64,000 nucleotides of DNA from Patescibacteria group bacterium (GTDB taxonomy: Bacteria > Patescibacteriota > Patescibacteriia > Magasanikbacterales > GWA2-37-8): the NCBI GenBank assembly GCA_041661385.1, contig JBAZUP010000001.1, positions 289,709 to 353,708 on the forward strand. Reading direction: 5' to 3'. Below, piece after piece: positions 8,125 to 56,915 of the stretch (its first letter is position 1; each line of letters opens with the position of its first letter). A program made the position numbers and the translations under genes. Under the pieces are notes generated by a model. The model saw nothing but the letters and a program-made list of their open reading frames with translations. It searched no databases and was not told the origin of the DNA.

Positions 8125-8160
8125 TGCAAAAATTAGCCGTTTTCAGTATAATACAAATGT

Positions 8161-12362: not shown

Positions 12363-13736
12363 ATGTCCGAAAAAAAACACATTCATTTTATCGGAATCTG
12401 TGGCGTCGCGATGAGCGCGCTCGCTTTGACGTTTAAAGAACGCGGCTGGAAAGTTACCGGCTCTGATAAAGGATTTTTTCCGCCGATTTCTACCCATCTT
12501 GAACAAAATGGCATTGATTTTTATGCGGGTTGGCACCCTGAAAAAATGGGAACTCCTGATTTAGTTGTAGTTGGAAATGTGGCCGGCTCTGAAAACCCGG
12601 AATGGCTCTACATCCAAGAAAAAAACATTCCCTACAAATCTTATCCGGAAGTTGTTGGAGAATATTTTGTCCGACCAAATTCTATTGTCTGCGCCGGAAC
12701 CTACGGCAAAACAACTTGTACAGCGCTCCTTAGCTGGATATATTTGAATAACGGTTATAATCCGAATTACATGTTCGGCGGGCTTAGCCAAAACAAACTC
12801 CCGGCCGCACATCTCACAGAATCAAAATGGAGTATTCTTGAAGGTGACGAATATAAATCTGCCCGGTGGGATAATCGGCCGAAATTCAGCCACTACAATC
12901 CTAAGTATCTTTTATTAACTGCAGTCGTTTGGGATCACGCTGATATTTATAAAACTGAAGAAGATTACCACCGCGCCTTTCAAAAATTAGCGAACGAATT
13001 ACCCGACGACGGACTAGTCATAGTATCGGAACGAGTTGATTCAATTTCTTTTTCACCAAAAATAATCACTTACGGAAAATCCAAAAATTGCAGCTTCCGC
13101 TATGGCACCATCTGTGAAGATGCAACCGGCCTAAAATTTAATATTTATCACGATAACAAAAGTTATTTTATTGAATCGCCATGCCTAGGTGAATATATGG
13201 CCGATAATATTACCGGCTGTTTTGCGTTAGCTTTTTCTCTTGGCATTGAAGCAGAGAGTATTATTGAAAATATCAAAACTTTTTTGGGAATGAAAAGACG
13301 CCTAGAAAAAAGATTCGAAGGTAAAATAGATGTTTTTGACGACATCGCCCACTCTCCCGCCAAAGTAAAATCCGTGATTGAAACTTTACGTCGAAATTAT
13401 CCTGATAAAAAATTGATAATAATTTTTGAACCAAATACCGGCAACCGCCGCCCCGAAGCAATACCAGGTTACGACAAAGCATTTCTAGGTGCCGATGAAG
13501 TAATAATTCCGCGTCTTACAAAAATTAAACACACTGAAGGTGACGATGAACCGATTGAAGGCACGAAACTGACAAAAATTATCGCCAAGACCCACAAAAA
13601 TGTAAAATATTTTGAAAACGACGGTGAATTGGTTCGTTATCTGCTCGATAAGAATAATGAAAATGTTACGATCGCCTTTCTTGGCAGCCACGGCTTTCGC
13701 GGCATGATTGAAGATCTGGTAAAAAATCTGGATTAA
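12363..13736 (+). CDS. murC: Mur ligase (UDP-N-acetylmuramate--L-alanine ligase MurC / Mpl-like)
   Basis: HFIGICGVAMSALA N-terminus, GTYGKTTCTALL P-loop, Mur ligase middle and C-terminal domains. Confidence 0.7.
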   Translation: MSEKKHIHFIGICGVAMSALALTFKERGWKVTGSDKGFFPPISTHLEQNGIDFYAGWHPEKMGTPDLVVVGNVAGSENPEWLYIQEKNIPYKSYPEVVGEYFVRPNSIVCAGTYGKTTCTALLSWIYLNNGYNPNYMFGGLSQNKLPAAHLTESKWSILEGDEYKSARWDNRPKFSHYNPKYLLLTAVVWDHADIYKTEEDYHRAFQKLANELPDDGLVIVSERVDSISFSPKIITYGKSKNCSFRYGTICEDATGLKFNIYHDNKSYFIESPCLGEYMADNITGCFALAFSLGIEAESIIENIKTFLGMKRRLEKRFEGKIDVFDDIAHSPAKVKSVIETLRRNYPDKKLIIIFEPNTGNRRPEAIPGYDKAFLGADEVIIPRLTKIKHTEGDDEPIEGTKLTKIIAKTHKNVKYFENDGELVRYLLDKNNENVTIAFLGSHGFRGMIEDLVKNLD

Positions 13737-13741
13737 AAAAT

Positions 13742-13764
13742 CCAGTCGCTCGCGAACGACTGGA
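13742..13764. terminator. bidirectional hairpin terminator (CCAGTCGCTCG/CGAACGACTGG)
   Basis: 11-bp stem with 1 mismatch, flanked by A-run (+) / T-run (-); between convergent genes. Confidence 0.5.
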
Positions 13765-13775
13765 TCAAGTTCTGC

Positions 13776-13940
13776 CTATTTTCCTTCGTCAACCACCTCT
13801 ACAGCTACATTATCTTTACTCAGATCTTTGACCTGAAGGGTTATACCGCAAGTGTCGCATTCGATAACATGTCCCTCTTTTAAATTTGGATAAGAGGAAA
13901 GATTTACGTCATTTTTACATTCTGGACAGATTAATTTCAT
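13776..13940 (-). CDS. LysW-like zinc-ribbon protein (54 aa; not in ORF track)
   Basis: Manual translation MKLICPECKNDVNLSSYPNLKEGHVIECDTCGITLQVKDLSKDNVAVEVVDEGK; CPEC...CDTC ribbon and acidic tail as in LysW/ArgW, but lacks the terminal EDWGE. Confidence 0.45.
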   Translation of the reverse strand: MKLICPECKNDVNLSSYPNLKEGHVIECDTCGITLQVKDLSKDNVAVEVVDEGK

Positions 13941-14011
13941 ATGTGTTAGGATTTAAAATAATTTCAACCAAGAAATACTATACACCAACCAATAAAAACT
14001 GACAAGAGATT

Positions 14012-14911
14012 ATGAAAACACCCCAAAAACCAATGCCCAATCTGGCTAAAGCACTCGGATTAAAAAACGAAGTATGGTTTAAGTTTGAAAATAAACACCA
14101 CCTTGGTTCACATAAGGGCCGCTCCATACCACGAATGATTGAAGAATATTTAGAAAAAAAAGTAACATCATTTGTTATTTCTTCATCTGGAAATGCCGCT
14201 CTCGCCGCCCTTCTTACAGTTGTCGCACACAATAAAAATAAACCTACAAGCACTCTTTCCCTAAAAATTTATGTCGGTGAAGGAGTTACAAAAGACAAAT
14301 TATTAACATTACAATCAAAACAGGACAGCTGCATAAGTATTGAACAGGTTAAAAACCCCAAACAAAGCGCGCTTAATTTTTCCAAAGAATCCGGTGCGAC
14401 CTGGTTGCGCGGTTCAACTGACCCACTCGCGCTAATCGGTTATCGGAGTCTATCTGAAGAACTATTAAAAATTGAAAACCTCTCCGCCGTTTTTTTAGCG
14501 GCATCTTCTGGAACCGCCGCCGAAGGAATAATGTCGGGTTTCAACGCTGCCCATACAAATCCAGAGCTTCACATTGTTCAAACTGATTCATGTCATCCGA
14601 TTATAAATTATTTATTAGAAAATCAAAATCAAACGGTACCAAAAGTCAGTCTGAATAATAGTTTGGCGGATGCAATAATTGATAAAGTTGGCCATCGAAA
14701 AGAAAGCGTAACAAAAGCAATAATTAATTCAAATGGAGCCGGTTGGATTGCGAGTGACGCTCAGATTAACGAAGCGATTGAACTTGTAAAAAAAGAAACC
14801 GGAGAAAAAATTTCTCCGAATAGCGCGCTCTCGGTGGTCGGCCTTAAAGAAGCAGTACTCTCCGGCCGTAAATGGAAGGGGCCAGTGGCATGTATTATCG
14901 GAGGAGATTAA
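14012..14911 (+). CDS. PLP-dependent fold-type II enzyme (threonine synthase/cysteine synthase superfamily), divergent
   Basis: FKFENKHHLGSHKGRS resembles K-E-NPTGSFKDRG PLP-lysine motif; SSGNAALA glycine loop. Confidence 0.5.
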   Translation: MKTPQKPMPNLAKALGLKNEVWFKFENKHHLGSHKGRSIPRMIEEYLEKKVTSFVISSSGNAALAALLTVVAHNKNKPTSTLSLKIYVGEGVTKDKLLTLQSKQDSCISIEQVKNPKQSALNFSKESGATWLRGSTDPLALIGYRSLSEELLKIENLSAVFLAASSGTAAEGIMSGFNAAHTNPELHIVQTDSCHPIINYLLENQNQTVPKVSLNNSLADAIIDKVGHRKESVTKAIINSNGAGWIASDAQINEAIELVKKETGEKISPNSALSVVGLKEAVLSGRKWKGPVACIIGGD

Positions 14912-16884
14912 TTTTTTGTTGTAATCATTAATTCCTGCTTTTTTTCATTGTTGAAATTAACGGCCGCCAGGCCGATTTTTTGATTTCCAAAAATACCCGT
15001 TATAATAAAATTATTAATCTTTGATCCGGAAAAATTAAATATTCCGACCTCGGGATTTTTTTGTTGTTTTACGACTGCGAGCTCATCTGAACCATCACCA
15101 TTAAAATCTCCGGCTGAAATAGTCAGCGTACCATTAAATTTTTTTCCAAACGGGCTAAAACGAGTTAATATTTTATTCAAATCTTTATCAAAAAATACTA
15201 CTTCCGCCGGACGACGACCGCTAGTTGCAAAAATAATGGACGGTTTACCGTAAAAATTTCCAATGGCGGCCGAAAAACCGCCCTGATATTTTTTTCCTAG
15301 CGGATAGAAGCTTTCATTAATAATTCCACCATGATAATTATACAGAACTACTTTTCCACCTCTGGAACCACTGACAATTATTTGTTTTTGACCATCATTT
15401 TCTAATGAACCCAAAGCAACATTTATCTCACCCTTATAATTACCGCCCAGAGGAAAGTCATTAAACCAGCGTGCGCCGCTCTCATCAAATATTTCCATTC
15501 GGGGTCCGGTTACAACAATTTTTTCAAGCATCTTGTCACCATTTACATCACCAGAAAATATTTTTGCGCCGCCGGGAAGATCGTTTTCATACGAAAAAAA
15601 TCCGTTTCTGGCGCGTTTTCCAGTAACATTATAAAAACGCAAAAAGGAACCGTTCGCATAGACAGCCTCGGTCACTCGCTGAAATGTTTTATATAGCAAA
15701 ATTCCATCCTTTGATTGCAAAGTTACCGAATCGACAATCGATCCATCATTTACAACTTTATCCTGTGTGCCGATCAATTTTTCGTATTCACCACCTAAAT
15801 CAATGGTGCGACTTTGATCCGTCGGGTTAACTAACGCAAGACCATTAGCGTAATCACGACGCCAAACATCAGGCTGAAACGGCGAATTACCTCCGACTGA
15901 AATTGCGTTCCCCGCCGCCCCACCGAGCTCGGCGTCATATTCATCGTACCACCAAAGCTGGGCATGATTCTGATCACCATAATCATAATCAAAATAGACG
16001 TTATCTGTTAGCAAACTACTCGCAAGACCAAATCGAACTTTTTTATAATCATTTTGTTTGCCGGTATTATTACTGTTTGAATTAAAAACATACAGCTGCG
16101 GAGCGGTATTCAAATTTTTGTTTTTTGACATTACCGTCATGATTGCGCTCCAATTGCCGCCGCTTTCCCAAGGAGTTGGAAAAGTTTCATACATTCGGCC
16201 GTTCACATATTTCTGAAAAACTTCGTTTGAGCTGCCATTAATAACTAAATATTTTGTTCTAATATTATTTTTTGCACTTTCAAGCAAATACTTTACTCGC
16301 TGTTGCCACTCAATATCCGTTAAAGTTTTGTTTCCCGCTGAAACGGCGCTTAAAACCACGTCACCATGATTAATAGACGAAACCGTGTCGTTCACCATAT
16401 CAAAAAATACCCCATCCACATTCGGCAAAGTAATAATATTATTGTTTATAAACTGAACCAAATACCCTGACCAGGCCGGATCCATATTTAAATTGCGAAT
16501 TCCCGGCCAATCGGAAATAATATTTCCCGACCGATCCCTTAACCACCACTCATCTTTTATGCCGTTTAAATTTTTATAAACCAAATCATCCGGCCAATAT
16601 TTAAAATTATAACTTTGACTTGGCACATAAGCGAGCATGATTATTTTCGGATTTACCTTTTTTACAGCAGCCAATATTTCGCTTCGAACAATAAATTGAT
16701 CTGGGCTAAGAATCAGTAAATTCATTTTGCTGAGTTTTTGTATAGATGTCGAATCCGTCGGCAAAGTACCAAGATAATATGCCGCCACTTGAGGCGCGGC
16801 GCTGGTTTGGTTTTGAAGAAGCACCAACGTCAAATACACTCCGATAAAAATAATTGAAATAATTTTCCAAAAAAATCTGTTCAT
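14908..16884 (-). CDS. secreted glycoside-hydrolase-like protein with C-terminal FG-GAP/VCBS repeats
   Basis: Signal peptide; N-terminal TIM-barrel-like polysaccharide hydrolase region; repeated GDVNGD/GDFNGDG FG-GAP motifs. Confidence 0.4.
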   Translation of the reverse strand: MNRFFWKIISIIFIGVYLTLVLLQNQTSAAPQVAAYYLGTLPTDSTSIQKLSKMNLLILSPDQFIVRSEILAAVKKVNPKIIMLAYVPSQSYNFKYWPDDLVYKNLNGIKDEWWLRDRSGNIISDWPGIRNLNMDPAWSGYLVQFINNNIITLPNVDGVFFDMVNDTVSSINHGDVVLSAVSAGNKTLTDIEWQQRVKYLLESAKNNIRTKYLVINGSSNEVFQKYVNGRMYETFPTPWESGGNWSAIMTVMSKNKNLNTAPQLYVFNSNSNNTGKQNDYKKVRFGLASSLLTDNVYFDYDYGDQNHAQLWWYDEYDAELGGAAGNAISVGGNSPFQPDVWRRDYANGLALVNPTDQSRTIDLGGEYEKLIGTQDKVVNDGSIVDSVTLQSKDGILLYKTFQRVTEAVYANGSFLRFYNVTGKRARNGFFSYENDLPGGAKIFSGDVNGDKMLEKIVVTGPRMEIFDESGARWFNDFPLGGNYKGEINVALGSLENDGQKQIIVSGSRGGKVVLYNYHGGIINESFYPLGKKYQGGFSAAIGNFYGKPSIIFATSGRRPAEVVFFDKDLNKILTRFSPFGKKFNGTLTISAGDFNGDGSDELAVVKQQKNPEVGIFNFSGSKINNFIITGIFGNQKIGLAAVNFNNEKKQELMITTKN

Positions 16885-16887: not shown

Positions 16888-18375
16888 TTAGTCTCGCAAA
16901 AAATTCCAGGAAAATTGATGCTCGCGGAAATAATATAGAGCAATTCCGACAATTAACCAAAAATATACCATGAGTGTTCTAAATTCAAAATATGGACCAA
17001 AAAAACCAAGAACTGAAAGCGCGACTACCACGCCACATAAACCTTGCGCAACAGTTTTTTGAATCACATCCTCAGTTCGTCTTTGTACAAAATACGCACT
17101 GCGATAAATTTCCCTAAATAATAATATCCAAATAAAAAGTCCCGCTGTACCAAGCTCACCCCAAATACTTAACCAATTATTATCAATTTGACCATAAATA
17201 TTTTGAATACCGAACGGCAAATGCAACTTGTCATAAATCTCACGGTTATCGAGTGCTGCCGCCACTCCACCGCCATAATTGCCAGGTCCAACGCCAAACA
17301 ATGGATAATGACTTACCACCATGAGCGGAGTATTAATAATAAAGAAAAATCTTCCATAACCCTCGTAGCTTTGTTGCCAGCTATAAAGACTTACCGTTTC
17401 TACTAATCGATCTCGAATCGACTGACGACCGGTTTTATCTATTGCTGCCGTGCCAAGGCTTTGTGTAACAATGACAAATAATAAATACATCGTAACAATA
17501 AAACCACCGACGGCTAAAATTCTAAATAAACGGCGATCGTTCATCAAAAAATAACCAATGGTAAACATTCCGGCGAGAAAGGCAATCCAACTAGCGCGCG
17601 AATAAGTCAACATTAATGCAACTGCTCCAAGAACAAAAGCAACCCACCATTTTTCTCTCGCAACTTTATCCTTAAGCGCATAAAACCAAGGAAATAACAT
17701 AATAAGACCTGTCGCAAGCAAACTACCAAGCCGATCATAGCGACCAAGGGTCGCGAATACTCTTTGACCTGGTGCCCAATTTTGTTCGATACCACCATAT
17801 TCAATGGAACCAAAATTTATGGAATCTGAAAAAAATAAATATTTATCAAGAACACCGCCGGAAATCGCTTGAATAATTGCCAGCACCGATTCGCCTACAA
17901 CAATATAGATACCAATTTTTAAAAAATTCTTTATTACCGCTTCGGAATAATTCTCTAAAATAAAAATTATAAATATCAAAACAAATCGAAGTAATTGTCT
18001 AATACCTAAAAACCAAACGGCCGGATTATATAAATTGGTAAGTAACGAAACTAAAGTTATACCTAAAAATAATAATAAATATTTGTTTACTGGCGTAACA
18101 GGAAACCAATGACGATTCTTTTTTAAATAACTGGCCCAACTAATTATGAGGGTGCCATAAACCAAGACTTCCGGAAAATATTTTATAAATACATAATAAT
18201 CCGAACTCGAGTATCTTAGAGCAATAGTTTCAAAAGGAAACCAAATTAATAATGCATATAAAATGTACTCTGTTTTGCGTAATGAAAAAACTATCAGTAA
18301 AAATAAAAATGCCACGACTGCGAGCAGAAGAAAGGTAAATGCTGAACCTTCGGCGAATGGCGGGACATTAAACAT
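16888..18375 (-). CDS. O-antigen ligase/polymerase family membrane protein
   Basis: ~11 TM; Wzy_C-like loop YSRASWIAFLAGM. Confidence 0.6.
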   Translation of the reverse strand: MFNVPPFAEGSAFTFLLLAVVAFLFLLIVFSLRKTEYILYALLIWFPFETIALRYSSSDYYVFIKYFPEVLVYGTLIISWASYLKKNRHWFPVTPVNKYLLLFLGITLVSLLTNLYNPAVWFLGIRQLLRFVLIFIIFILENYSEAVIKNFLKIGIYIVVGESVLAIIQAISGGVLDKYLFFSDSINFGSIEYGGIEQNWAPGQRVFATLGRYDRLGSLLATGLIMLFPWFYALKDKVAREKWWVAFVLGAVALMLTYSRASWIAFLAGMFTIGYFLMNDRRLFRILAVGGFIVTMYLLFVIVTQSLGTAAIDKTGRQSIRDRLVETVSLYSWQQSYEGYGRFFFIINTPLMVVSHYPLFGVGPGNYGGGVAAALDNREIYDKLHLPFGIQNIYGQIDNNWLSIWGELGTAGLFIWILLFREIYRSAYFVQRRTEDVIQKTVAQGLCGVVVALSVLGFFGPYFEFRTLMVYFWLIVGIALYYFREHQFSWNFLRD

Positions 18376-18439
18376 AGAATCGAAAATCTGGGCTTATTAT
18401 ACTATTTTTCAGCAAAATACTAAAGTAAAATATCATTTT

Positions 18440-18463
18440 AAAAAACCCCAAAACGGGGTAATT
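18440..18463. terminator. hairpin AAAAACCCCaaaaCGGGGTAATTTT
   Basis: Short GC stem flanked by A/T runs, upstream of O-antigen ligase start. Confidence 0.35.
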
Positions 18464-18631
18464 TTAGCCAAATATATTAATTATGGCTATATATCGACCA
18501 CCTTTCAAAAAGCTGAGCGATATATAGCTGCCGACCGTTCAAACACGGGTGCATGAATGGTCGGCAGAGTAATTCTCCCGGACCACTCGTATGGTTAACG
18601 AACGGTCTGGGAAGTTTTCTTCAGTGAAACA

Positions 18632-20353
18632 CTACTGTTGGTAGACGCGTCCACCGTTCCAAGTGGCTCGGTAGTTCGGCACCACATAAACGCACGTGGT
18701 ACCGTTTGGCGCCCACCAGGTCCGCTGAGAACAGCCGGTCAAATCGCCGTTCTCCATCATGGACCGATGATTCCTCGCCGGATCTGAGGTGAGACACTTG
18801 TCAGCTCCGACATAGTAACCACCATCCCATGCGGTGTCGGTGTACACTTGCACACCAACTCCCGTGCGACTGACGCACAACCGGAACTGGTCCGGCGCGC
18901 ACTTGGTAGTACCCTGGATAAAGACTCCAGAGTGACAGTCGAACGCATTTCCAGACTGTGGAGTCTGGTCGATCTCAACATCACCGTTGCAGGTCTTGGT
19001 AGCAGACCAAAGCGGTCCGCAATTCAAGCTCGAGCATTCGGTATGGGCGGTGCAGGTTGCACCGTTGGCCTTGCCGGTACCACCAGCCGTATAGGCGACC
19101 AGATTGATCGTCATCGAGTGGCTGGTAGCGCTCCAAACGCCGGTGACAGTGAGCGGATAGGTAAGCCCCGTCGTACTTGCCGCAAGCGTGTAGGGCACGG
19201 TAACGAGCAGAGTTGAAGTACCGCTTGAATTTGCAACCGTGACGGAAGTCGGGCTGAGGCTGGCAGTAGTACCCGCCGGAGCTCCGGTAACAGTCAGGGC
19301 GACGACCTTGGACGTGGTGTCCGCGGTCGCAATCGTGATGATTGCAGAAACCGAGACGGTTCCTGTCGTCGGAACGGTTACCGACAAAGTCGGTGGACCC
19401 GAGATCGTGAAATCCGTTGTCGGAACCACACAACTCGTACCATTGCACGCGCCGGTCGCGCAGTAAGTACCATTGCCATTTGGCGTGGTACCACATCCGT
19501 TGTTCGGCAGGATCGAAGTCCCGCAAGCAACGGTGTTCGCCGGCGGATAGGTCGGTGTACAACCCGAGACACAGGTGGTGCCGTTGCACGTGCCAGTCGC
19601 ACAGTAGGTACCGGTGCCGTTTGGCACAGTACCACATCCGTTGTTCGGCAGGATCTGAATCCCGCAGTTGACGGACGAAGCCGGCGAATAGATCGGCGTG
19701 CAATTCACCTTCGGCGCACAGGTGCCGTTGGTGCAGGTGTCACTTTCGCAGTTGCTTCCCTGGTGACAGGGCATGCCAACCGCCAAGTCCGTGCGATCGT
19801 AACAGACATTGTTGATGCAATCCTGGCCGAGCAGGCACGACTTGTTGCAGCTTGTCGGCGGAATGCACAATTGGGTAGTGCGGTCGCACTTTCCGCTTGA
19901 GCACTTGTCATCCCCAACTCCGCAGAACGCGTAATCGGGACGACCGACACACCACCCAGACACTCTGCCGGCCTCGAGAGGACAGAGCAACGAAACGCAC
20001 TGGAGTCTCGAGGTGCAAGGCGCACCGTTGAAGAACTGCTCGGAAGGAACACAGAGGTTCGATTCGAGCGGCTGTGGTGCACAGGTCATGGTGTCGCGGC
20101 AGGGCGGGCTGCAGGTCTGCAGGGTGCACTTGCCCACCGTCGCGGTGCCGGTGACGATGCATGTGTTGTTGTCGGCGCACTGGTCCGATCCGGTGCAGTC
20201 TGCACCGATAGGCCTGCCGACGCACTTGCCGTCGGGTCCGCAGGGCAATTCGGAAGAGCACTCCAGGTACTGGTTGCAGGGCTGACCGTTGGGAATCTTC
20301 GGACAACCCGTCAGCATTGCGATCATCATCGCAAACAACGAGAGCTTCCGCAT
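18632..20353 (-). CDS. cysteine-rich repeat lipoprotein (high-GC island)
   Basis: Lipobox MLTGC; ~70 Cys in C-x3-C-x5-6-C-x3-G-x-C type repeats (myxobacterial-style Cys-rich repeat); Thr/Ser-rich Ig-like segment; GC ~62%. Confidence 0.6.
   Translation of the reverse strand: MRKLSLFAMMIAMLTGCPKIPNGQPCNQYLECSSELPCGPDGKCVGRPIGADCTGSDQCADNNTCIVTGTATVGKCTLQTCSPPCRDTMTCAPQPLESNLCVPSEQFFNGAPCTSRLQCVSLLCPLEAGRVSGWCVGRPDYAFCGVGDDKCSSGKCDRTTQLCIPPTSCNKSCLLGQDCINNVCYDRTDLAVGMPCHQGSNCESDTCTNGTCAPKVNCTPIYSPASSVNCGIQILPNNGCGTVPNGTGTYCATGTCNGTTCVSGCTPTYPPANTVACGTSILPNNGCGTTPNGNGTYCATGACNGTSCVVPTTDFTISGPPTLSVTVPTTGTVSVSAIITIATADTTSKVVALTVTGAPAGTTASLSPTSVTVANSSGTSTLLVTVPYTLAASTTGLTYPLTVTGVWSATSHSMTINLVAYTAGGTGKANGATCTAHTECSSLNCGPLWSATKTCNGDVEIDQTPQSGNAFDCHSGVFIQGTTKCAPDQFRLCVSRTGVGVQVYTDTAWDGGYYVGADKCLTSDPARNHRSMMENGDLTGCSQRTWWAPNGTTCVYVVPNYRATWNGGRVYQQ
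19430..19700. repeat. tandem ~138-bp (46-aa) duplication inside cysteine-rich gene
   Basis: Protein unit C.P.Y.PA..V.CG...ILPNNGCGT.PNG.GTYCATG.CNGT.C occurs twice; nearly identical DNA visible. Confidence 0.7.
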
Positions 20354-20568
20354 GGCTGCTCCTTCTCCTCACTTCATGCGAGGAATGGTTCCGGCTTTCA
20401 CATGAAAGTCGGTAATTCTTGTTTCACTTCAGTTTTCAACGAACTTCTTGTTTCTCCTTTTCTAGTCACAAGATTAGTTATGGCTAGAATAAGGTTGCCA
20501 TCAACTCTCGGAAGAGTTGATGGCAATTTGCATAGGCGAACCTATGCGATGAAAAGAGCTACTTGTGG

Positions 20569-21354
20569 CTAGAAGAAGCCACCGGTGACTGTCTCCAGCT
20601 TGTCGTTCGTCCAGGTCTGGAAAGGCCGGGACGGACTGGCATGCTGCCAACCGGTATAGGTACCGGTGGTACCATTCGGCACCGTGAAGGAGCCGGAGGC
20701 TTCAGGACAGCAGATCTGCGAATTCGCAGACACCGACTGACTGTCGACGTTCTTCTTGCCGGCGATGAACTGGTCCCAGCAAGTGAAGACGCTGTTCGTC
20801 GTGGGCGTGGCGCAAAGGATGTACTGCGCCGTTCCGACAACGCAAACGTTGTCGATGCACACGTGACCAGACGTGCAATCCGGGGTGCAGAAGTTTCGAG
20901 CGTAACACACGCCCGAGACGCAGTTCTGGCCCGTGGGACACGGGTTCGAGCTGCTGCACACGTTGTTGTTCGGAGGCGTGGTGCCCGGAGTCTTGCAGAC
21001 TCCGCTGTCGCAGACCAGATTCTTGGTCCCGTCGCAGTCGGCGCTGAAGACGCACTTCTTCCCGACCTCGCAGAGGTTGGGAGGCTCTGCCATCCGGCAA
21101 GACCATCCGCAGTCGACATCCGACTCCGAATAGTCCTGAACGCCGTTGTTGCATCGGGCGACGTCCCAGGTGGTGCAGATGCCCTTCAGCTCCCGCTCGT
21201 TGCCGCAGACCAGGCCGTCGGCGCACTCGTTGCTGTTCAGGGCGCAGGAATCGTGGAACTTCTTCTTCCCGTGCTCGTAGTCCTTCCCGCAGCCGGGGAG
21301 GAGGGTGAACATCGCCACGATGGCGATGGTGAACAACTGCGCGAACTTCTTCAT
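20569..21354 (-). CDS. cysteine-rich secreted lipoprotein (high-GC island)
   Basis: Lipobox LLPGC; repeated C-x-D-G-x-C / CxxGxxC units; GC ~62%. Confidence 0.55.
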   Translation of the reverse strand: MKKFAQLFTIAIVAMFTLLPGCGKDYEHGKKKFHDSCALNSNECADGLVCGNERELKGICTTWDVARCNNGVQDYSESDVDCGWSCRMAEPPNLCEVGKKCVFSADCDGTKNLVCDSGVCKTPGTTPPNNNVCSSSNPCPTGQNCVSGVCYARNFCTPDCTSGHVCIDNVCVVGTAQYILCATPTTNSVFTCWDQFIAGKKNVDSQSVSANSQICCPEASGSFTVPNGTTGTYTGWQHASPSRPFQTWTNDKLETVTGGFF

Positions 21355-21545
21355 GATCGCTCCTTCTCTCCCCTTTAACGGGTGAGATTTTTCCGAGCTT
21401 CCATTATGAAAACCCGGTAATTCTTTTTCCTATCTGAAAATAAATTTCTTTATTCCCAGAAGTGGAGGTCCTTGCGCCTCTTGACGCAAGGACCGATCCG
21501 ATCGATCTTTTAACGCTCGAAAGCGTTAGAAAATACGATTTTGCC

Positions 21546-22607
21546 CTATCGGGACAGGGCAACGTCCGCGGCATTGAAGCCGATTCGGACAATGAAGCTG
21601 CTTCCTGGTGACAGGTATCCGTCCTTCGGGCCCAAATTGTGGGCCCACTCTCCCTCGGCGACGAAAGCGCCGAACTTCAAACGGAGAGTTGCTCCCGGCA
21701 TGCTGGCCGTGAGCTTGTCCATCTCCCATCTTCCGATGCGAGTGAACGACGGACCAATGCCCATCTGAAACTCCCGATCAAGAGCGTTCACGAAGTTGAA
21801 GAGGATCTTCCCCTTCGCTTCGGCTCTGAAGAGCGGGCTGAAATTGCCGAGAGTAAGACGGTCGTGATAAATGACCGCCCCACCACCGGCAATGCCGATG
21901 AGCAACCGATCCCCGAGGATCGGAGGTGAATAGTTCAGCTGAACATCTCCGAGGACAGCGCCATCGGTAATCCATCCCAGCCCGAAGCCGAGCTCGAGAT
22001 AGTTTGACCGCTTCGTGACGATCACCGGAGGCGGTCGAGTGTCGACCACTTCAAGTGGGCCATAGATCCTGCGGCGGGAGTCTGCTGCGGACGCTTCGTC
22101 CGCGGCCTTCTTCCTTGCTTCCTCTTCCTCGCGGATGCGAGCTTCGGAAGCTGCCTTCTCACGAGCGACGACCTCGGCGACCGCCTTCATGTCGGCTTGC
22201 TGCTTGCGGTAGTCGAGCACAGCATGGCGCGCCTGCTCCGGATCGTTGCAAAGCTCTTCCGGGTATTCATACTGCCGGCAGAACTTCCGATTGATTTCAG
22301 TGCGGCGCTTCTCGTTGTCCTGGTTGACCTTCTTCTTGAGTGCCTTGCGGACGCACTTCGGGTCCGCACAGCACTGCGCGCTGACATGAAGACCACCGAG
22401 GGTCTTCTGGCAGGACTTGAGGGCGACCATGTCCTCGGACTCCGGCGTGAGCTCGACCTGAATCTTGTCGGGCATGTGCCTTCCGACGATCTTGTCGATC
22501 TCGGACTGCGAGAGACTGGTGGGTGCCGGTGCCGCCGACTCGGCCATGACGCTACTCGCGAGCGTCATGAAAACGAAAGCAACTGCGAAGCGAACGATGT
22601 TGTTCAT
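21546..22607 (-). CDS. secreted protein with coiled-coil N-region and beta-rich C-domain (possible OM beta-barrel), hypothetical
   Basis: Signal peptide ...VMAES; Cys pairs; Glu/Arg/Lys coiled segment; C-terminal alternating hydrophobic strands ending in an aromatic-type tail. Confidence 0.45.
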   Translation of the reverse strand: MNNIVRFAVAFVFMTLASSVMAESAAPAPTSLSQSEIDKIVGRHMPDKIQVELTPESEDMVALKSCQKTLGGLHVSAQCCADPKCVRKALKKKVNQDNEKRRTEINRKFCRQYEYPEELCNDPEQARHAVLDYRKQQADMKAVAEVVAREKAASEARIREEEEARKKAADEASAADSRRRIYGPLEVVDTRPPPVIVTKRSNYLELGFGLGWITDGAVLGDVQLNYSPPILGDRLLIGIAGGGAVIYHDRLTLGNFSPLFRAEAKGKILFNFVNALDREFQMGIGPSFTRIGRWEMDKLTASMPGATLRLKFGAFVAEGEWAHNLGPKDGYLSPGSSFIVRIGFNAADVALSR

Positions 22608-22623
22608 CTTTTCTCCTCTCCCT

Positions 22624-23310
22624 TTACGGGGTGGTAGTGGTTTCGGGTTGCTTCTGCTTCGAACCGAGACGATTCTTCAATTCCTCTGCAGAGGTGATCG
22701 CGGTCTTTTCCGAGATCTTGATCTGCTCTGCAAGGCAAGCTGCGTTCCAGGCGTTTCGCTCGAGAGCGAATTCATTCGCCTGATCAGCGATCTTCTTCTT
22801 GAGCTCGGCCGTAGCAAAGCTGGATGCCGCACCCATGTCGGGGAACACAGATCTCCCCATCATGAAAGCAAAGACGGTGCAGATGGTACAGACAACCACC
22901 CAAACCCACGGGAACTTCTTCGGCTTCGCATGATGAGACCGAGATGGCTCGTGATGAAAGTGAGCCGGCTCGTCGTGTGGAACGGCGGAGTGATCCGTAT
23001 GAAAACTGGGCTCTTCCTGATGAGTCGTTGGCACTTCCTCACAAAGAGACGTATTGTAAATAACGACAATATCGTCCCAAGCCTTCAGCGCCTTCTGCTT
23101 CATCACCTTGTGATGGTCCTCGGGAATATGAGGGCGTCGCAGGCTATCGAGCGCCGATGTGAGCTCGTTGAAGTGTTCCAGCATCTCCTGCTGATTGACT
23201 TTTTTCGTGAGGAAATCAAGCACGGACTTGACACTTTCGTGATTGGTTTCAATGCCGATCTCTCGGAGCTGGACCAAAAGCGCTGAAGTATATTCGCCTG
23301 GCTTCATCAT
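22624..23310 (-). CDS. single-pass membrane protein (anti-sigma-factor-like topology), hypothetical
   Basis: Cytoplasmic N-domain, His-rich linker, one TM (WVWVVVCTICTVFAFMMG), periplasmic C-domain. Confidence 0.4.
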   Translation of the reverse strand: MMKPGEYTSALLVQLREIGIETNHESVKSVLDFLTKKVNQQEMLEHFNELTSALDSLRRPHIPEDHHKVMKQKALKAWDDIVVIYNTSLCEEVPTTHQEEPSFHTDHSAVPHDEPAHFHHEPSRSHHAKPKKFPWVWVVVCTICTVFAFMMGRSVFPDMGAASSFATAELKKKIADQANEFALERNAWNAACLAEQIKISEKTAITSAEELKNRLGSKQKQPETTTTP

Positions 23311-23340
23311 TTGCTTTCTCCCTAGTTGGTAAAATGAGCT

Positions 23341-23361
23341 CTGTCCTGTAAAACAGGACAG
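23341..23361. promoter_or_regulatory. perfect 9-bp inverted repeat CTGTCCTGT-aaa-ACAGGACAG upstream of 22624..23310 gene
   Basis: Seen directly; lies 30-50 nt upstream of the minus-strand start codon; candidate operator. Confidence 0.3.
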
Positions 23362-23546
23362 TCCAGATATACTAAACAGATTTCTGGAAAGAAAATCGGC
23401 TCAAAGCTGGTTTTCTTCCCTAAAACCTGTACTAAAGTGGCTTGCCTATCCAAAAATACCTTATCACACAGAACTGCTCAGCTTATCATAAATTAGCGAA
23501 AATGTCAAGAGCTTTTTGCAGTCTTTACTCCTATATAGCACAAACT

Positions 23547-23575
23547 AAAAAACCCGGCCAAATAGACCGGGTTTT
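23547..23575. terminator. bidirectional terminator AAACCCGG-loop-CCGGGTTT
   Basis: 8-bp GC stem, A-run upstream, T-run downstream; follows stop of 23591..24205 gene. Confidence 0.55.
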
Positions 23576-23590: not shown

Positions 23591-24205
23591 CTAAATTCTG
23601 CCAAAATGTGTGTGTCGACGATATTTAAGAATCCACAAAGCCGAAAGTAAGAAACCAATTACAAATCCGGCCAAAAAATTAGCTACCACATTTGGTCGAT
23701 TTGGAAACATTGAAACTAAAGGATTATCAACCTGTTTTAAAACAACGTCACCGCCAATATATTCCCAACCCCGGCTGGTGAGAGTTTGAACAACGGCATT
23801 ACAAAAATTCTTTACTTCATCAGGTGTAGTCGCATACGTAGTAACTTTAAGCAGACTTGTACCATAAACAGTTTCCGGTTTTACATCCCGCTGCCAATTT
23901 TTTCTTTGCTGACGCTCACTATAATTTTTCCATTTATCTTTATCAAAAGAAACCGCTGTCGATTCCATTACCTTATCATAAAAATCTGTGGTCTTAATAA
24001 CTTCCGCGAGGTTCTCACCGATTCTTTCGGCGGACTTGGCTTGGGTGTAAGGATCAACTCCAGCTCGATCGCGTGAAATAATCAAAACTTGACTTACCGC
24101 GCTGTATTGAAGCGGGAACACAAAAGAAATTGCCCCGGCTAAAACGGCGACAATTACTCCCCACAAAATTAATAAATTTAAATGTTTTCTGAGAACACTA
24201 AACAT
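23591..24205 (-). CDS. polysaccharide chain-length determinant (Wzz/CapA-like) small membrane protein
   Basis: N- and C-terminal TM with periplasmic middle; neighbours O-antigen ligase-like gene. Confidence 0.35.
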   Translation of the reverse strand: MFSVLRKHLNLLILWGVIVAVLAGAISFVFPLQYSAVSQVLIISRDRAGVDPYTQAKSAERIGENLAEVIKTTDFYDKVMESTAVSFDKDKWKNYSERQQRKNWQRDVKPETVYGTSLLKVTTYATTPDEVKNFCNAVVQTLTSRGWEYIGGDVVLKQVDNPLVSMFPNRPNVVANFLAGFVIGFLLSALWILKYRRHTHFGRI

Positions 24206-24216: not shown

Positions 24217-25308
24217 TTATAATTGCAATATTGGAACCTGATTTTCAATAATATTTCCGTTTCGCCAAATACTTACTCTTACTCGCTGCGCGCCCATATT
24301 ATACCACAAATTTTCCCGGTTGGCGCTGCGGCCATTTATCTCAAGAATTACATCTCCCTTTTGAAAAAATTGCCGATTGCCAACAACTTTTGAAACAATA
24401 AAACCCGAAATTTTTTCTTCGTTTATGATTAATAATTTCTCATCACTATACCAACCTTCCACACCAAGACTCGGATAAATAATCTGCTTTTTATCATCAA
24501 TTCCGTTTAAAAAATAATTTTCATTTACAAGCGACATTACCGCTCCCCCGCCGACAATAAATCCAACCATATTACCCGATGAATCTATCGCAATCGAGCC
24601 GTTTTTAAATGAATCACTAAGGTTGTACAAGTATGTTGAAGCAGTATCTAAGTGGCTGTTTTCTGAACTAGCAACTTGCCCAGATGTCATTGTGCTGTGC
24701 CAGCGGCCCTCTTGATAAACAAACACTTCATCATACTGACTTAGGCCATTATTAAATGTAACTACCCGGAATTGTTGATCAGAAACATTTGAATTTTTAA
24801 TTCGGGGTTGAATTTTTATATATACAAGACCGGTACGCTTATCAAAAAGAGAACTTGTGACAGAATATAACGATCCGTTAGCTCCAACTACAACCCAATC
24901 TTTGGTTCGACCATCAAAGGTCGGAACATACGAAAGCAACCAGCCTGATGTAACACTCATTACACCATCTGTCACCTTGTCGGTTTCAGAAAAATAACTA
25001 ACTTTGCCGACGATCGTCGCTTTTCGATAAATGGAAAAAATTTGATCTTTAATTTTATTTTGAGCCCTAACTTGTAGCTGCTCGCGCGGAATTGACAGAG
25101 AACTATTATTATAAAAATAGCCGTCGTCATTTATAACCAGCGGCCAAATCCAACCCACCAAAACCGCGGCACCGGAAAGCCCTGCCAAAATTCCAAAGGC
25201 CGATGCGGCAATAATAATTTTGAGGCGCTCCCACTGACGATGGCGAGCTAAACTTGATGATGGCGGCGGTAAGTGTGGAGGGAACATAGGATTACTTCCA
25301 GCGAACAA
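24217..25308 (-). CDS. membrane-anchored HtrA-like protein with C-terminal PDZ domain (divergent S1 protease)
   Basis: N-terminal TM; IAIDSSGNMVGFIVGGG resembles trypsin GNSGG region; PDZ-like LGVEGW...GDVILEINGRSA. Confidence 0.4.
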   Translation of the reverse strand: MFAGSNPMFPPHLPPPSSSLARHRQWERLKIIIAASAFGILAGLSGAAVLVGWIWPLVINDDGYFYNNSSLSIPREQLQVRAQNKIKDQIFSIYRKATIVGKVSYFSETDKVTDGVMSVTSGWLLSYVPTFDGRTKDWVVVGANGSLYSVTSSLFDKRTGLVYIKIQPRIKNSNVSDQQFRVVTFNNGLSQYDEVFVYQEGRWHSTMTSGQVASSENSHLDTASTYLYNLSDSFKNGSIAIDSSGNMVGFIVGGGAVMSLVNENYFLNGIDDKKQIIYPSLGVEGWYSDEKLLIINEEKISGFIVSKVVGNRQFFQKGDVILEINGRSANRENLWYNMGAQRVRVSIWRNGNIIENQVPILQL

Positions 25309-26086
25309 TAAATACTAAAAAAATCAACATTAACGATAAATTTGAAACCAGAAAATACTTCTGTTTTGACCAATCAATCCCGGTGGCGGATAAATTAAAT
25401 CGAAATAACAACCAAGTGATATACCAGACCCAGGTCAAAAAAAAGCTACTAACAAAATAACCGATTGGCCATAAAAACACAATACCGCCAATTTCAACTA
25501 GAATCAAAAGCATGACCCCGGCCAATTGGATCATTTTGTTATTTATTTTTTCACCATATTCAGCCCATTCCCAAACACTAATTGCCGTAACAATTATTCC
25601 GGCGAGTAAAATACTCCAAACAACATTTTGTCCATTTATAATTTGAAAAATCGTCAGGGCTGAAACAGAAAGCCAGATGCCAATAATTCCGAAAAGAGAC
25701 ATAAAAAATTTCCAGCGGCGATGTGGCTTTTCCATTATCGACAAACTGTCGGCTCGCGTCGGAATAAGCCAAAAACTCGTGGCAGACATTATTATTGTCA
25801 ATAATTGCGAAATCCAAATATTTGACGGATCACTAAAAACCAAAAATGCTACCGCTCCAATATTACACAAAAATAATGAAATAAAATGTTTGTAACGACT
25901 AATATACGGAGGATAATAAACAAAATTTACTAAACCCGCCCACCAAATAAGTCGTACTGCAAACCAGGCTGCTACCAACCAATAATTGTGAACGCTAGTC
26001 AGCCACCATACCAAAACAAAAGAAAATAGGACATCAAAAATGACAGCCAAGCGTGGATGAATAGAAATTAGTCTTCGATCGGGCAT
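25292..26086 (-). CDS. polytopic membrane protein, hypothetical
   Basis: ~8 TM; overlaps upstream gene by 17 nt (operon). Confidence 0.4.
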   Translation of the reverse strand: MPDRRLISIHPRLAVIFDVLFSFVLVWWLTSVHNYWLVAAWFAVRLIWWAGLVNFVYYPPYISRYKHFISLFLCNIGAVAFLVFSDPSNIWISQLLTIIMSATSFWLIPTRADSLSIMEKPHRRWKFFMSLFGIIGIWLSVSALTIFQIINGQNVVWSILLAGIIVTAISVWEWAEYGEKINNKMIQLAGVMLLILVEIGGIVFLWPIGYFVSSFFLTWVWYITWLLFRFNLSATGIDWSKQKYFLVSNLSLMLIFLVFIVRWK

Positions 26087-38258: not shown

Positions 38259-38347
38259 AGGAATAATTTGGTGATATTATAGCACAATTTACCTAAAACA
38301 AAACCCCCCGCTTTTTGTAGCGGGGGGTCAACCTTTCGAAAAGTTGA

Positions 38348-38812
38348 TTAGTCGGTAATTCCTGATTGCGATAATGTAACTCCACCAGACAAGCCATTAA
38401 CTGTACCTTCCAATGTGGCGGTGACAGTGTATGTGCTGGAAGCTGCATTATAGGTATAAACGAGAGCTCCAGTATCATTTGGATCGCCTGGAACGCTACC
38501 CATATAAGCGTTAGCACAACCTGTTGCGTGCCAACCGGCGTTATCTAAACAAGCATAGTTGCCTGTTGCTGTAGTCGCTGGGCTTCGCAGAGGTCCTAAC
38601 ACTACGTTTGAACCTGCTGGGTAAGCATTTTGATCGGTGTAGTATAATTCCAAAGCAGTTTGAATTTGCTTAAGATCTGACATGCGTTTAGCGTCTCTAG
38701 CCTTCACACGAGCGTTGCCGAGGGCAACTACCGCGAGAGTGGACAAAAGACCGATAATGGCGATGACGACCAAAAGTTCGATCAAAGTAAAACCTTTCTT
38801 ATTCATTTTCAT
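38348..38812 (-). CDS. type IV pilin-like protein (prepilin N-methylation motif)
   Basis: [19 protein letters not shown] class III signal peptide; start MKMNKK preceded by GGAGGTGA RBS (ORF track extends to 38902). Confidence 0.75.
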
Positions 38813-38852
38813 ATTGTCACCTCCCTTCCAAAATTTGTATTCTTCATATTTT

Positions 38853-39323: not shown

Positions 39324-39375
39324 AATTTATTTTAAATACTTTTTTCCAAAAACATTATAACACATTTCTTGACTA

Positions 39376-39756: not shown

Positions 39757-39773
39757 ATTTATAATATTATAGA

Positions 39774-50896: not shown

Positions 50897-50916
50897 CATA
50901 TAATTTAACACACATA

Positions 50917-56197: not shown

Positions 56198-56217
56198 ACC
56201 TATTAAATATCGACCTG

Positions 56218-56902: not shown

Positions 56903-56915
56903 AAATAGTGGGAAT

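Follow-up and report, generated by a model that had tools for sequence, protein, structure and literature searches.

Horizontally acquired genomic islands typically appear as sharply bounded blocks with atypical GC content and codon use, often encoding surface proteins, and under the amelioration model (Lawrence and Ochman 1997) such an anomaly is expected to decay. Atypical composition can also be kept by selection rather than marking recency, however, as with AT-rich islands that are kept AT-rich for long periods under H-NS-type silencing. Several other described systems are relevant here: the small 8-stranded outer-membrane barrels (OmpA N-domain, OmpW, NspA, OprF N-domain, and Thermus TtoA); the MXAN_6577-like (NF041328), Stig1, and Dickkopf-type Cys-rich modules of Myxococcota; the Escherichia coli ompA 5' untranslated region, an mRNA stabilizer made of two stem-loops with a single-stranded ribosome-binding site; and the Bacteroidia, which rarely use Shine-Dalgarno (SD) sites but keep them on a few special genes.

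We compared with these systems a GC-rich block in a 64,000-nucleotide stretch (the window) of the genome of a small candidate-phyla-radiation (CPR; Patescibacteria) bacterium (GCA_041661385.1, contig JBAZUP010000001.1, positions 289,709 to 353,708). An initial annotation had described the block as an island of about 4.8 kb with 60 to 65% GC in a 38% GC genome, encoding myxobacterial-style Cys-rich lipoproteins, and had explained it as either a very recent horizontal acquisition by a reduced-genome, possibly episymbiotic bacterium or a chimeric contig join. The observation itself was confirmed, although the jump is smaller than had been claimed: GC is 0.57 for positions 18632 to 23310 (0.568 for 18600 to 23330), against 0.40 for the rest of the window. 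One hundred other 4.7-kb windows averaged 0.403 (SD, 0.023; maximum, 0.468), which gives a z score of 7.3. In 200-nucleotide windows, GC rises from 0.375 (18400 to 18599) to 0.51 (18500 to 18699) and 0.555 (18600 to 18799) and falls from 0.505 (23100 to 23299) to 0.43 (23200 to 23399) and 0.395 (23300 to 23499). The interpretation, on the other hand, was only partly supported, since the small-genome CPR host and the two Cys-rich lipoproteins held up, but neither proposed origin did. The block and its surroundings comprise the following features, all on the minus strand:

23591 to 24205 (-), flank gene encoding a Wzz-like chain-length-determinant protein (Pfam Wzz), with host composition
23311 to 23430 (-), P4 leader, with a hairpin (23341 to 23361) followed by the SD GGGAGAAAG
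22624 to 23310 (-), P4, 228 amino acids (aa), with an N-terminal cytoplasmic part of about 140 aa, one transmembrane helix (FPWVWVVVCTICTVFAFMMG), and an outside tail of about 65 aa that looks coiled-coil
21546 to 22607 (-), P3, 353 aa, with a Sec signal peptide (SVMA, followed by ES), a helical N-domain with conserved cysteines, a long helix (residues 123 to 181), and a predicted C-terminal 8-stranded beta-barrel (residues 202 to 351)
21467 to 21527 (-), two hairpins after P3, GGTCCTTGCG...CGCAAGGACC and AACGCT...AGCGTT
21355 to 21418 (-), structured 5' leader of P2, with the same motif as the P1 leader
20569 to 21354 (-), P2, 261 aa, a lipoprotein (LLPGC) with 25 Cys, N-terminal Cys-knot-like modules, and a small C-terminal beta domain (about residues 175 to 261)
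20495 to 20526 (-), hairpin with a perfect 14-bp stem after P2, which looks like a terminator
20354 to 20413 (-), structured 5' leader of P1, consisting of ACCG, stem-loop 1, CGGAA, stem-loop 2, GAAGGAG (SD), and ATG
18632 to 20353 (-), P1, 573 aa, a lipoprotein (MLTGC) with 51 Cys, about nine Cys modules, two 47-aa repeats, a Thr/Ser-rich stretch that looks Ig-like, and a conserved C-terminal domain of about 150 aa
18445 to 18615 (-), a run of hairpins after P1, ending in ACCCCGTTTTGGGGT followed by a T run (18445 to 18459)
16888 to 18375 (-), flank gene encoding a Wzy_C (O-antigen-ligase-like) membrane protein (Pfam Wzy_C), with host composition

The sizes given earlier for the four genes were correct, as were the GC3-rich codon usage and the hairpins, which lie after each transcription unit (for example, 20495 to 20526, 23549 to 23575, and 18445 to 18459). 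The GC3 values of P1, P2, P3, and P4 are 0.69, 0.84, 0.73, and 0.63, respectively, whereas most other window genes have a GC3 of 0.26 to 0.40, with a block at 52.9 to 57.6 kb reaching 0.45 to 0.58. However, the GC excess is not continuous. It switches off in every spacer, with GC values of 0.38, 0.43, 0.43, and 0.39 and a length-weighted mean of 0.40, against 0.38 for host intergenic DNA, and in the 14 loci examined, every spacer has lower GC than the coding sequence of its cassette. Since spacers hold promoters and terminators, their low GC is not a purely neutral control.

Using the Wzz-like gene as a synteny anchor, we retrieved 40 related loci (designated L numbers below), in which the syntenic relatives are recorded as Magasanikbacteria, Patescibacteria, or Parcubacteria; an identical copy of P2 is on record as a hypothetical protein of a Patescibacteria group bacterium metagenome-assembled genome on a 778,751-bp contig. 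The same P4-P3-P2-P1 order lies between the same Wzz-like and Wzy-like genes in at least six other Magasanikbacteria-like CPR genomes (L004, L005, L058, L059, L060, and L062). The Wzz-like protein is 72 to 73% identical in L004 and L005, and the Wzy_C gene directly follows the cassette in L005, L059, and L060. Between the window and L005, flank proteins are 56 to 85% identical, but the flank 4-fold sites are saturated (identity, 0.25 to 0.56), while cassette GC3 stays at 0.62 to 0.87 in the window, L004, and L005. Pairwise identities of P3 and P2 track flank identity (rho, 0.75 and 0.79), although one P2 pair (L005-L059; identity, 0.54) is more alike than its flanks predict, and some cassette exchange does occur. 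In 20 loci, cassette GC3 is 0.68 to 0.95, against a host GC3 of 0.28 to 0.53. Sampling is thin, with no relative closer than about 68% flank identity, and cassette GC3 does not clearly track host GC3 (rho, 0.33; P = 0.16); an equilibrium model is not demonstrated.

Compared with a recently acquired genomic island, the block shares the atypical composition and codon use but is present at the same site in related genomes. No mobility gene, att repeat, or convincing flanking repeat was found, the nearest tRNA or tmRNA gene is more than 3 kb away, and searches for phage, plasmid, and viral-contig relatives and against PHROGs and PADLOC returned no match for the cassette. Searches for donor-lineage homologues found only clade-internal full-length relatives. 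Compared with H-NS-silenced islands, the direction is opposite (GC-rich in an AT-rich genome), the effect is confined to coding sequence, and no silencer is known or implied.

Of the four products, P4 is the first gene of a P4-P3 pair separated by 16 nucleotides and has positional homologues in L004, L005, L059, L060, and L062 at 20 to 41% identity, but no hit in Pfam, NCBIfam, PHROGs, PADLOC, or PDB sequences. The C-terminal domain of P3 is predicted to form eight antiparallel strands in a closed barrel with a lipid-facing hydrophobic surface, as in OmpA, OmpW, and OmpX-like proteins. In contrast to the small barrels listed above, it follows a long coiled coil, and none of 11 family members matches a Pfam OMP model at E values up to 1, leaving the barrel a prediction without sequence-family support. 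Six of the 11 members end in F, W, or Y and one ends in L, whereas the P3 of the window ends in DVALSR and lacks the terminal aromatic residue that most relatives have. Moreover, CPR cells studied so far are described as monoderm (PMC8871954), and an OMP-type barrel has no obvious home in such a cell.

P1 and P2 both carry a signal peptide followed by a lipobox ([LVI][ASTVIP][GAS]C), the lipoboxes having been noted in the initial annotation, and LPGCG is invariant in the P2 of four genomes; Lgt and LspA were not found among the window ORFs scanned. Cysteines make up about 9% of residues in both proteins, but the C-x3-C-x5-6-C-x3-G-x-C repeat previously ascribed to them does not occur, the recurring modules being C-x5-C-x4/5-C-x4-10-C and C-x3-C-x5/6-C-x4-C. 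P1 contains an internal 135-nucleotide tandem repeat (19428 to 19562 and 19569 to 19703) and has homologues in L005, L059, and L060 at 34 to 39% identity; a protein database search found only domain-level hits, and there was no Pfam, NCBIfam, or PDB match. P2 has full-length homologues only in the clade. The myxobacterial-style label does not hold for the proteins of the window, which share with the Myxococcota modules the dense C-x4-6-C spacing in secreted lipoproteins but reach no family threshold: neither has an NCBIfam hit, and P2 scores 21.4 bits against Pfam DUF7107, below the gathering cutoff of 24.6 bits. The island of one relative (L042), however, does encode a true MXAN_6577-like protein of 763 aa, which scores 187 bits against a cutoff of 100 (NF041328).

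The cassette genes also differ from host genes in how they appear to start translation. A strong SD site precedes 46 of 50 island genes but only 17 of 162 flank genes, the latter being no more than expected from an estimated chance rate of about 13%. As in Bacteroidia, a small set of genes keeps strong SD sites in a genome whose genes otherwise lack them, but here that set is an envelope cassette that also has reversed codon use. The leader architecture of P1 also precedes P2 in the window, precedes both genes in L004, L005, and L059, and occurs in variant form in L060 and L062. All eight leaders fold on their own into two hairpins that leave the SD unpaired (z, -1.8 to -3.9), and stem-loop 2 keeps its pairing with entirely different sequences, although an automatic alignment recovered only part of this. 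The pattern occurs at only two sites in the window, against 0.07 expected by chance. Upstream of P4, relatives share CCAGAAATCTGGAC, followed by a hairpin whose sequence differs but still pairs and then an SD; the window copy has an insertion inside the first element. The P1 and P2 leaders thus resemble the ompA leader in having two stem-loops and an unpaired ribosome-binding site ahead of envelope-protein genes, without any sequence relation, and candidate -10 elements are inconsistent between genomes.

Codon use is likewise distinct, with AAG at 97%, CAG at 90%, and TTC at 84% and no TTA, CTA, or ATA, whereas the L20, L35, IF3, and SmpB genes of the window use AAA at 77% and CAA at 94%. GC3 is highest in AT-rich codons within cassettes and lowest in them in flanks. 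In most cassettes tested, both A/T runs and G/C runs are fewer than in synonymous shuffles (z down to -5), while host genes have more (mostly z of +3 to +8).

Taken together, we consider it somewhat more likely than not that the island is a native, vertically inherited, fast-evolving envelope gene cassette of a Magasanikbacteria-like CPR lineage, situated inside a surface-polysaccharide locus. What the analysis shows directly is that there are three transcription-unit-like blocks (P4-P3, P2, and P1), each with a conserved structured leader and a strong SD site and each ending in hairpins; that the coding sequences, but not the spacers, are GC-rich, also in relatives with saturated flank silent sites; and that the host genes are AT3-rich and have no more SD motifs than chance would give. 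The remainder is inferred from sequence alone, namely, that the high GC is held by selection on the coding or transcribed sequence, rather than being left over from a donor or resulting from regional mutation or gene conversion. The form of selection we prefer is an mRNA built to last and to load ribosomes through an SD, which would have hairpin leaders, few A/U runs that RNases could cut, and few long G/C runs. The products are likewise inferred to form a cell-surface structure, in which P4 would anchor in the cell membrane, P3 would link to it through coiled coils and end in an OMP-type barrel requiring a second lipid layer (an unrecognized outer layer of the cell or the outer membrane of a host), and P1 and P2 would be disulfide-stabilized surface lipoproteins acting as adhesins. 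The cassette probably first came from a GC-rich diderm donor, before this clade diversified.

A more far-reaching reading is not excluded, although we regard it as unlikely. In this view, a presumed single-membrane CPR episymbiont keeps a dedicated gene set for a structure that reaches into a second membrane, with the barrel of P3 inserting into the outer membrane of a Gram-negative host, tethered through coiled coils to P4 in the symbiont membrane, and P1 and P2 acting as adhesins. The cassette would run on its own translation regime in an otherwise SD-less genome, combining SD-led start, reversed codon use, and long-lived structured mRNAs, kept in place by selection over the whole history of the clade. 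That the GC-rich, SD-led style is kept because the genes are expressed in the GC-rich diderm host cell itself is a remote possibility, without positive evidence.

Among the alternatives, repeated reimport or gene conversion from a GC-rich, SD-using donor pool, such as the bacterial host of each CPR lineage, survives best but still seems improbable. Such a cassette would never ameliorate and would appear to codiverge; its style does look foreign in three respects (GC3, SD use, and OMP-plus-lipoprotein content), L042 carries the MXAN_6577-like protein, the L005-L059 P2 pair is more similar than expected, and CPR bacteria are thought to take up DNA. However, no P3-family protein was found outside this locus among 1.84 billion representatives, and all seven members that could be placed lie here, in CPR context. 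The clade-restricted P2 homologues, the merely domain-level P1 hits, the host-like spacers, and the leaders conserved within the CPR clade also speak against it, and since both flanks are CPR genes, a donor offers no homology for targeted replacement.

GC-biased gene conversion at a recombination hot spot, as surface-antigen loci often are, in which biased repair of heteroduplex DNA would drive GC up locally, appears slightly less likely still. The cassette does lie in a surface-polysaccharide locus, evolves fast, shows some sign of exchange, and has raised GC1 in P3 and P4. Conversion tracts ignore reading frames, though, yet GC drops to the host level in each window spacer of 191 to 280 nucleotides. 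Furthermore, third positions counterbalance their neighbors, leaving fewer A/T and G/C runs than in synonymous shuffles, which a uniform push towards GC does not predict, and the SD sites and leaders would remain unexplained.

A single recent acquisition from a high-GC, Myxococcota-like donor, the first origin proposed, rests on the atypical composition and Cys-rich lipoprotein content but is very unlikely and already contradicted by the synteny and codivergence with relatives whose silent sites are saturated, by the host-like spacers, and by the lack of any donor homologue or mobility signature in our searches; in addition, Ala, Gly, and Arg codon choice is close to that of the host, which we would not expect in a genuine high-GC genome. 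Finally, a chimeric join, despite the abrupt composition change at both ends, is contradicted at the level of assembled contigs, as the island and both junctions are 100% identical in ENA k141_532943 and Logan SRR6484324_175 and the Wzy-side junction is also present, with 100% identity over the part of the island covered, in Logan SRR18595301_81014 (separately built, from different runs and by different assemblers), the cassette proteins are also on record from JGI and NCBI on the 778,751-bp contig, relatives at 52 to 68% flank identity have the same architecture, and the composition switches eight times inside the block rather than twice.

The compositional anomaly described in the initial annotation proved to be real. 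In 1-kb windows, GC content was 0.57-0.59 from 19 to 23 kb, compared to 0.33-0.46 across most of the rest of the window, and the span 18632-23310 as a whole had a GC content of 0.57 against 0.40 for everything else, which is 7.3 standard deviations above 100 other windows of the same size. In 200-nt windows, GC rose from 0.375 to 0.555 between 18.4 and 18.8 kb and fell from 0.505 to 0.395 between 23.1 and 23.5 kb. The four minus-strand open reading frames (ORFs) of this span had the annotated lengths and are referred to here as follows:

18632-20353, minus strand, P1, 573 aa
20569-21354, minus strand, P2, 261 aa
21546-22607, minus strand, P3, 353 aa
22624-23310, minus strand, P4, 228 aa

GC3 values for P1 to P4 were 0.69, 0.84, 0.73, and 0.63, respectively, while most other genes in the window had values of 0.26-0.40. 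A second, milder rise (GC of 0.48-0.52 at its peak, at 53-55 kb) was found at 52946-57649, a block with GC3 values of 0.45-0.58 that covers a 752-aa fn3 surface protein with a GC2 of 0.55, FolD, and two hypothetical proteins with GC3 values of 0.54-0.58; this block may be a weaker case of the same phenomenon. P1 and P2 begin with signal peptides ending in the lipoboxes MLTG|C and LLPG|C, respectively, and contain 51 and 25 cysteines. The cysteine motif proposed in the initial annotation (C-x3-C-x5-6-C-x3-G-x-C) was absent, however, and the actual modules are C-x5-C-x4/5-C-x4-10-C and C-x3-C-x5/6-C-x4-C. Hairpins follow each unit, as had been suggested. Two further corrections apply: the contrast is 57% against 40%, rather than 60-65% against 38%, and the GC excess is interrupted, with the four spacers having GC contents of 0.38, 0.43, 0.43, and 0.39 (length-weighted mean, 0.40), compared to 0.38 for host intergenic DNA.

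The suggestion that the block resulted from a chimeric contig join was rejected. A lookup of the exact P1 protein returned three contigs, ENA ERZ27249449 k141_532943 (95 kb), Logan SRR6484324_175 (13.8 kb), and Logan SRR18595301_81014 (9.6 kb), which were 100% identical to the window over 21.7, 13.8, and 9.6 kb, respectively. The first two span both junctions, and the third spans the junction on the side of the Wzy-like gene. Moreover, the proteins of the cassette are on record from JGI and NCBI on a 778,751-bp contig, with P2 annotated by NCBI as a hypothetical protein (WC725_01580) of a Patescibacteria group bacterium.

The flanking regions encode ordinary small-genome functions: SmpB with transfer-messenger RNA (tmRNA), IF3, L35, and L20; MurB, a Mur ligase, and MraY; and DNA ligase, pyruvate phosphate dikinase, SecDF, and type IV pilus parts. 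Among these, the SecD gene (61346-63421) carries PpiC-type rotamase domains fused in the same protein, and type IV pilus genes (prepilin peptidase and PilM) and a VirD4/TraG-like coupling ATPase (37470-40952 and 44944-47493) lie about 14-24 kb from the cassette. A scan of species-representative genomes with the neighboring Wzz-like protein returned 40 loci at 48-61% identity, the titles of which name Candidatus Magasanikbacteria, Patescibacteria, or Parcubacteria. Many of the records (among loci L006-L044) are instead titled "uncultured Gammaproteobacteria," which conflicts with their gene content and synteny and looks like a placeholder. The initial proposal of a reduced, possibly episymbiotic bacterium is therefore sound. 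Two conserved membrane proteins without a Pfam family (24217-26086; about 356-363 aa, depending on the start called, and 264 aa) always precede the Wzz-like gene in this lineage and may belong to the same envelope locus.

A recent acquisition was likewise rejected. P3 had only two database relatives, at 44% and 38% identity, and both were located in the same place as in the window, in the order SmpB, a 264-aa protein, a 356-aa protein, the Wzz-like gene, and then the cassette. In the longer of these two contigs (L005; the other is L004), the Wzy_C, GHL15, and PALP genes follow the cassette, as they do in the window. Both contigs had GC contents of 0.55-0.65 in most 400-nt windows of the cassette, against 0.32-0.45 in the flanks, and inspection of their ORFs showed the same four genes in the same order. 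A profile of P3 searched against 1.84 billion representative proteins found nine members, five of which could be placed. Together with the two relatives mentioned above, this yields seven family proteins, all of which lie at this locus, in six genomes other than that of the window itself; the remaining three are on contigs of 1-2.3 kb. Between the window and L005, flank proteins were 56-85% identical, whereas their 4-fold sites were only 0.25-0.56 identical, with most at 0.25-0.45, close to what we estimate chance would give. Silent sites have therefore turned over, and yet cassette GC3 was 0.62-0.87 in the window, L004, and L005. The cassette proteins themselves were far more diverged (P4, 26%; P3, 40%; P2, 43%; P1, 47%), but their pairwise identities still followed those of the flanks across seven genomes, with Spearman rho values of 0.75 for P3 and 0.79 for P2, although the associated P values are only approximate, since the pairs are not independent. 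This is the pattern of one old cassette, inherited vertically and evolving fast. One pair did not fit: the P2 proteins of L005 (9881-10741) and of L059, another relative carrying the cassette (5402-6262), were 54% identical, more than their flanks (62%) and their P3 proteins (35%) predict, and they also share an insert; occasional exchange between lineages is likely, possibly of this one cassette gene. Two metagenome scans for closer relatives, which would have allowed substitutions to be polarized, found none.

The GC excess appears to be a lineage-wide habit. Eighteen of the 40 representative loci, many of the remainder of which are truncated, had a GC spike within 10 kb downstream of the Wzz-like gene, with maxima of 0.50-0.75. 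Where we read them, the spikes encode the same kinds of proteins: a bitopic membrane protein, a signal-peptide protein with a beta-rich C terminus, and Cys-rich lipoproteins. Over 20 loci, cassette GC3 was 0.68-0.95, against a host GC3 of 0.28-0.53. Some lineages (loci L008 and L032) appear to lack the cassette within the stretch available, while another relative (L060) has two proteins of the P3 family, with its predicted barrel, in a five-gene cassette (8001-9140 and 10680-11372).

We then asked what kind of force keeps GC high. First, the excess is confined to coding sequence: in 14 loci, spacers of mostly 150-500 nt had GC contents of 0.38-0.59, while coding sequence had 0.52-0.71, and every spacer lay below the coding sequence of its cassette. 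A recently imported block, a regional mutation bias, or biased gene conversion would all carry the spacers along. Second, the codon pattern is not what we would expect of a genuine high-GC genome. Lys is encoded by AAG in 97% of cases, where the host uses AAA in 82%; Gln is CAG in 90%, Phe TTC in 84%, and Ile ATC in 73%; TTA, CTA, and ATA are absent; and Ala, Gly, and Arg codons are used almost as in the host. In every cassette but one (that of locus L012), G or C at the third position was at least as common in the AT-rich codon class as in the GC-rich class, while flanks showed the reverse in all loci but one. Third, the same counterbalancing crosses codon borders. Compared to shuffles swapping synonymous codons within a gene, most cassettes had fewer A/T runs and all had fewer G/C runs (z of -3 to -4 for the window cassette, apart from the longest A/T runs, with z about -1.3). 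Across six genomes, z mostly fell between -1.2 and -5.2, with L062 as the exception for A/T runs, whereas host genes had more of both (z mostly +3 to +8). Cassette GC3 did not clearly scale with host GC3 (rho, 0.33; P, 0.16), leaving a simple equilibrium model unproven. Taken together, these points favor selection on the coding or transcribed sequence for an even, fairly high GC content and argue against inheritance from a donor and against a regional neutral process.

Other sources of the anomaly were considered and rejected. Use of optimal codons for high expression is contradicted by the L20, L35, IF3, and SmpB genes of the window, which use the opposite Lys, Gln, and Glu codons (AAA, 77%; CAA, 94%; GAA, 84%). 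A tRNA-Gln with anticodon CTG is present at 50826-50897, although host genes use CAA for 70-94% of Gln codons; CAG makes up 90% of Gln codons in the cassette. High GC as a by-product of amino acid content is not supported, since the GC2 values of P3 and P4 (0.43 and 0.38) are close to that of the host (about 0.36) and the shift is mainly at third positions. Structural RNA was excluded because Rfam found only a tmRNA and two tRNAs, all elsewhere in the window. Finally, a phage, plasmid, or viral origin received no support, with no tblastn hit for P3 in the phage collection or for P1 in the plasmid collection, no relative of P2 in viral contigs, and no PHROG or PADLOC family for any of the four proteins.

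A second difference concerns ribosome-binding sites. All four island genes have strong Shine-Dalgarno (SD) sites (GGAGAAGGAG, GAGAGAAGGAG, GGGAGAGGAG, and GGGAGAAAG), while only one of the 34 other window genes showed an SD-like 4-mer. Across 19 loci, 46 of 50 cassette genes had GGAG, GAGG, or AGGA at -22 to -4, compared to only 17 of 162 flank genes, which is about the 13% we estimate chance would give; even if any start in the first 30 codons was allowed, the latter count rose to only 34 of 162. The lineage seems to start translation without SD, except in the cassette; a search of the fetched loci for a 16S 3' end, which would carry the anti-SD, found nothing.

The P1 and P2 leaders share the layout ACCG, hairpin 1, CGGAA, hairpin 2, AAGGAG, and ATG in the window, L004, L005, and L059, with variants in L060 and L062. 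While RNAalifold on the automatic leader alignment recovered only the outer pairs, each of the eight leaders, when folded separately, formed two hairpins with the SD left free, and hairpin 2 kept its pairing with quite different sequences. Within the window, the pattern occurs only at these two sites, against 0.07 hits expected by chance. P4 leaders share a different element, CCAGAAATCTGGAC, followed by a variable hairpin. In locus L016, three cassette genes are each preceded by a leader of about 250 nt (17250-17500, 18310-18560, and 19645-19895) with about 92% identity between copies, implying coregulation or recent copying of the leader. The two-hairpin layout recalls the ompA leader of Escherichia coli, which stabilizes its mRNA, but this is a resemblance only.

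As for the products, P4 has one transmembrane helix and an outside segment that looks coiled-coil. P2 has Cys modules and a small, confidently predicted beta domain, for which the model gave no informative fold match. P1 adds two 47-aa repeats, a Thr/Ser-rich stretch that looks Ig-like, and a conserved C-terminal domain; in L005 (11106-12656) and L059 (6534-8480), a cytochrome c (CxxCH) domain sits where that stretch is. None of the four proteins matched PDB sequences. The label "myxobacterial-style" used in the initial annotation was partly right, in that the island of a relative, L042, encodes a 763-aa protein with 92 cysteines and a GC3 of 0.92 (13652-15943) that is a true MXAN_6577-like and Stig1-type protein (187 bits). 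Since CPR cells examined so far are described as monoderm (PMC8871954), a barrel of the outer membrane type, as predicted here, is unexpected.

The initial interpretation was thus only partly supported, with the host and, to some extent, the protein label borne out and both explanations for the GC excess rejected. What the analysis establishes is an old, syntenic, fast-evolving cassette, with a GC excess limited to coding sequence, with SD sites and structured leaders specific to it, and with products that are secreted, lipid anchored, and, by prediction, barrel type, and in this core (an old and native cassette with a coding-limited GC excess and specific SD use) we have high confidence. The remainder is inference, and our confidence in the full statement, including selection and function, is only somewhat better than even. 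We infer that selection maintains a separate expression regime and favor long-lived mRNAs that load ribosomes through an SD, because that would explain the leaders, the loss of A/T runs, the restraint on G/C runs, and the restriction to transcribed coding sequence. We further infer that the proteins form a surface or host contact structure, in which P4 would sit in the cell membrane, P3 would be joined to it by coiled coils, with its predicted barrel in a second lipid layer, and P1 and P2 would act as adhesins. The original source was probably a GC-rich diderm, given the predicted OMP fold and the MXAN_6577-like protein in L042, in an event that would predate the clade.

In a literature search that did not cover all journals, we found no paper describing persistent GC-rich cassettes, SD use, or OMP-type barrels in Magasanikbacteria or in CPR bacteria generally. 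Among the nearest concepts, genomic islands and amelioration are contradicted by this case on age, AT-rich islands kept by silencing are its mirror image, small OMP barrels are matched in (predicted) fold only, myxobacterial Cys-rich proteins have a true member in a relative only, and the ompA leader is matched in layout only. Lineage-specific surface cassettes are known as such; what sets this one apart is an unusual sequence style that appears to be actively maintained. Atypical composition is widely read as recent transfer or contamination, but here it appears to be an old, conserved, and probably selected trait, and such blocks should not be trimmed from CPR genome bins or dated with amelioration clocks. 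One small genome seems to hold two sets of gene expression rules (SD-less, AT3-rich genes and SD-led, GC3-rich genes), which makes testable, in a natural system, the long-standing question of what codon choice and SD use do beyond matching mutation bias. Additionally, almost nothing is known about how non-Saccharibacteria CPR bacteria touch their hosts, and the cassette provides concrete candidates, including a predicted outer-membrane-type barrel in a lineage thought to have one membrane.

Finally, automatic gene callers pick the antisense strand in these GC3-rich genes, with public gene calls choosing the antisense ORF over P2 (20563-21378, plus strand) and over the P2 and P1 homologues in L005 (9854-10531 and 10917-12671, both minus strand). 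These protein families are therefore partly missing from public protein databases, which weakened the P1 search. We rejected the antisense ORFs as real genes, since long antisense ORFs are expected whenever codons that would read as stops on the other strand (TTA, CTA, and TCA) are avoided, while the sense frames carry the signal peptides, the conserved cysteines, and the GC3 peak. A 97-aa ORF called as a gene in the ENA record (18263-18556, plus strand) lies in the AT-rich spacer between P1 and the Wzy-like gene and overlaps the putative terminator hairpins; it is probably spurious.
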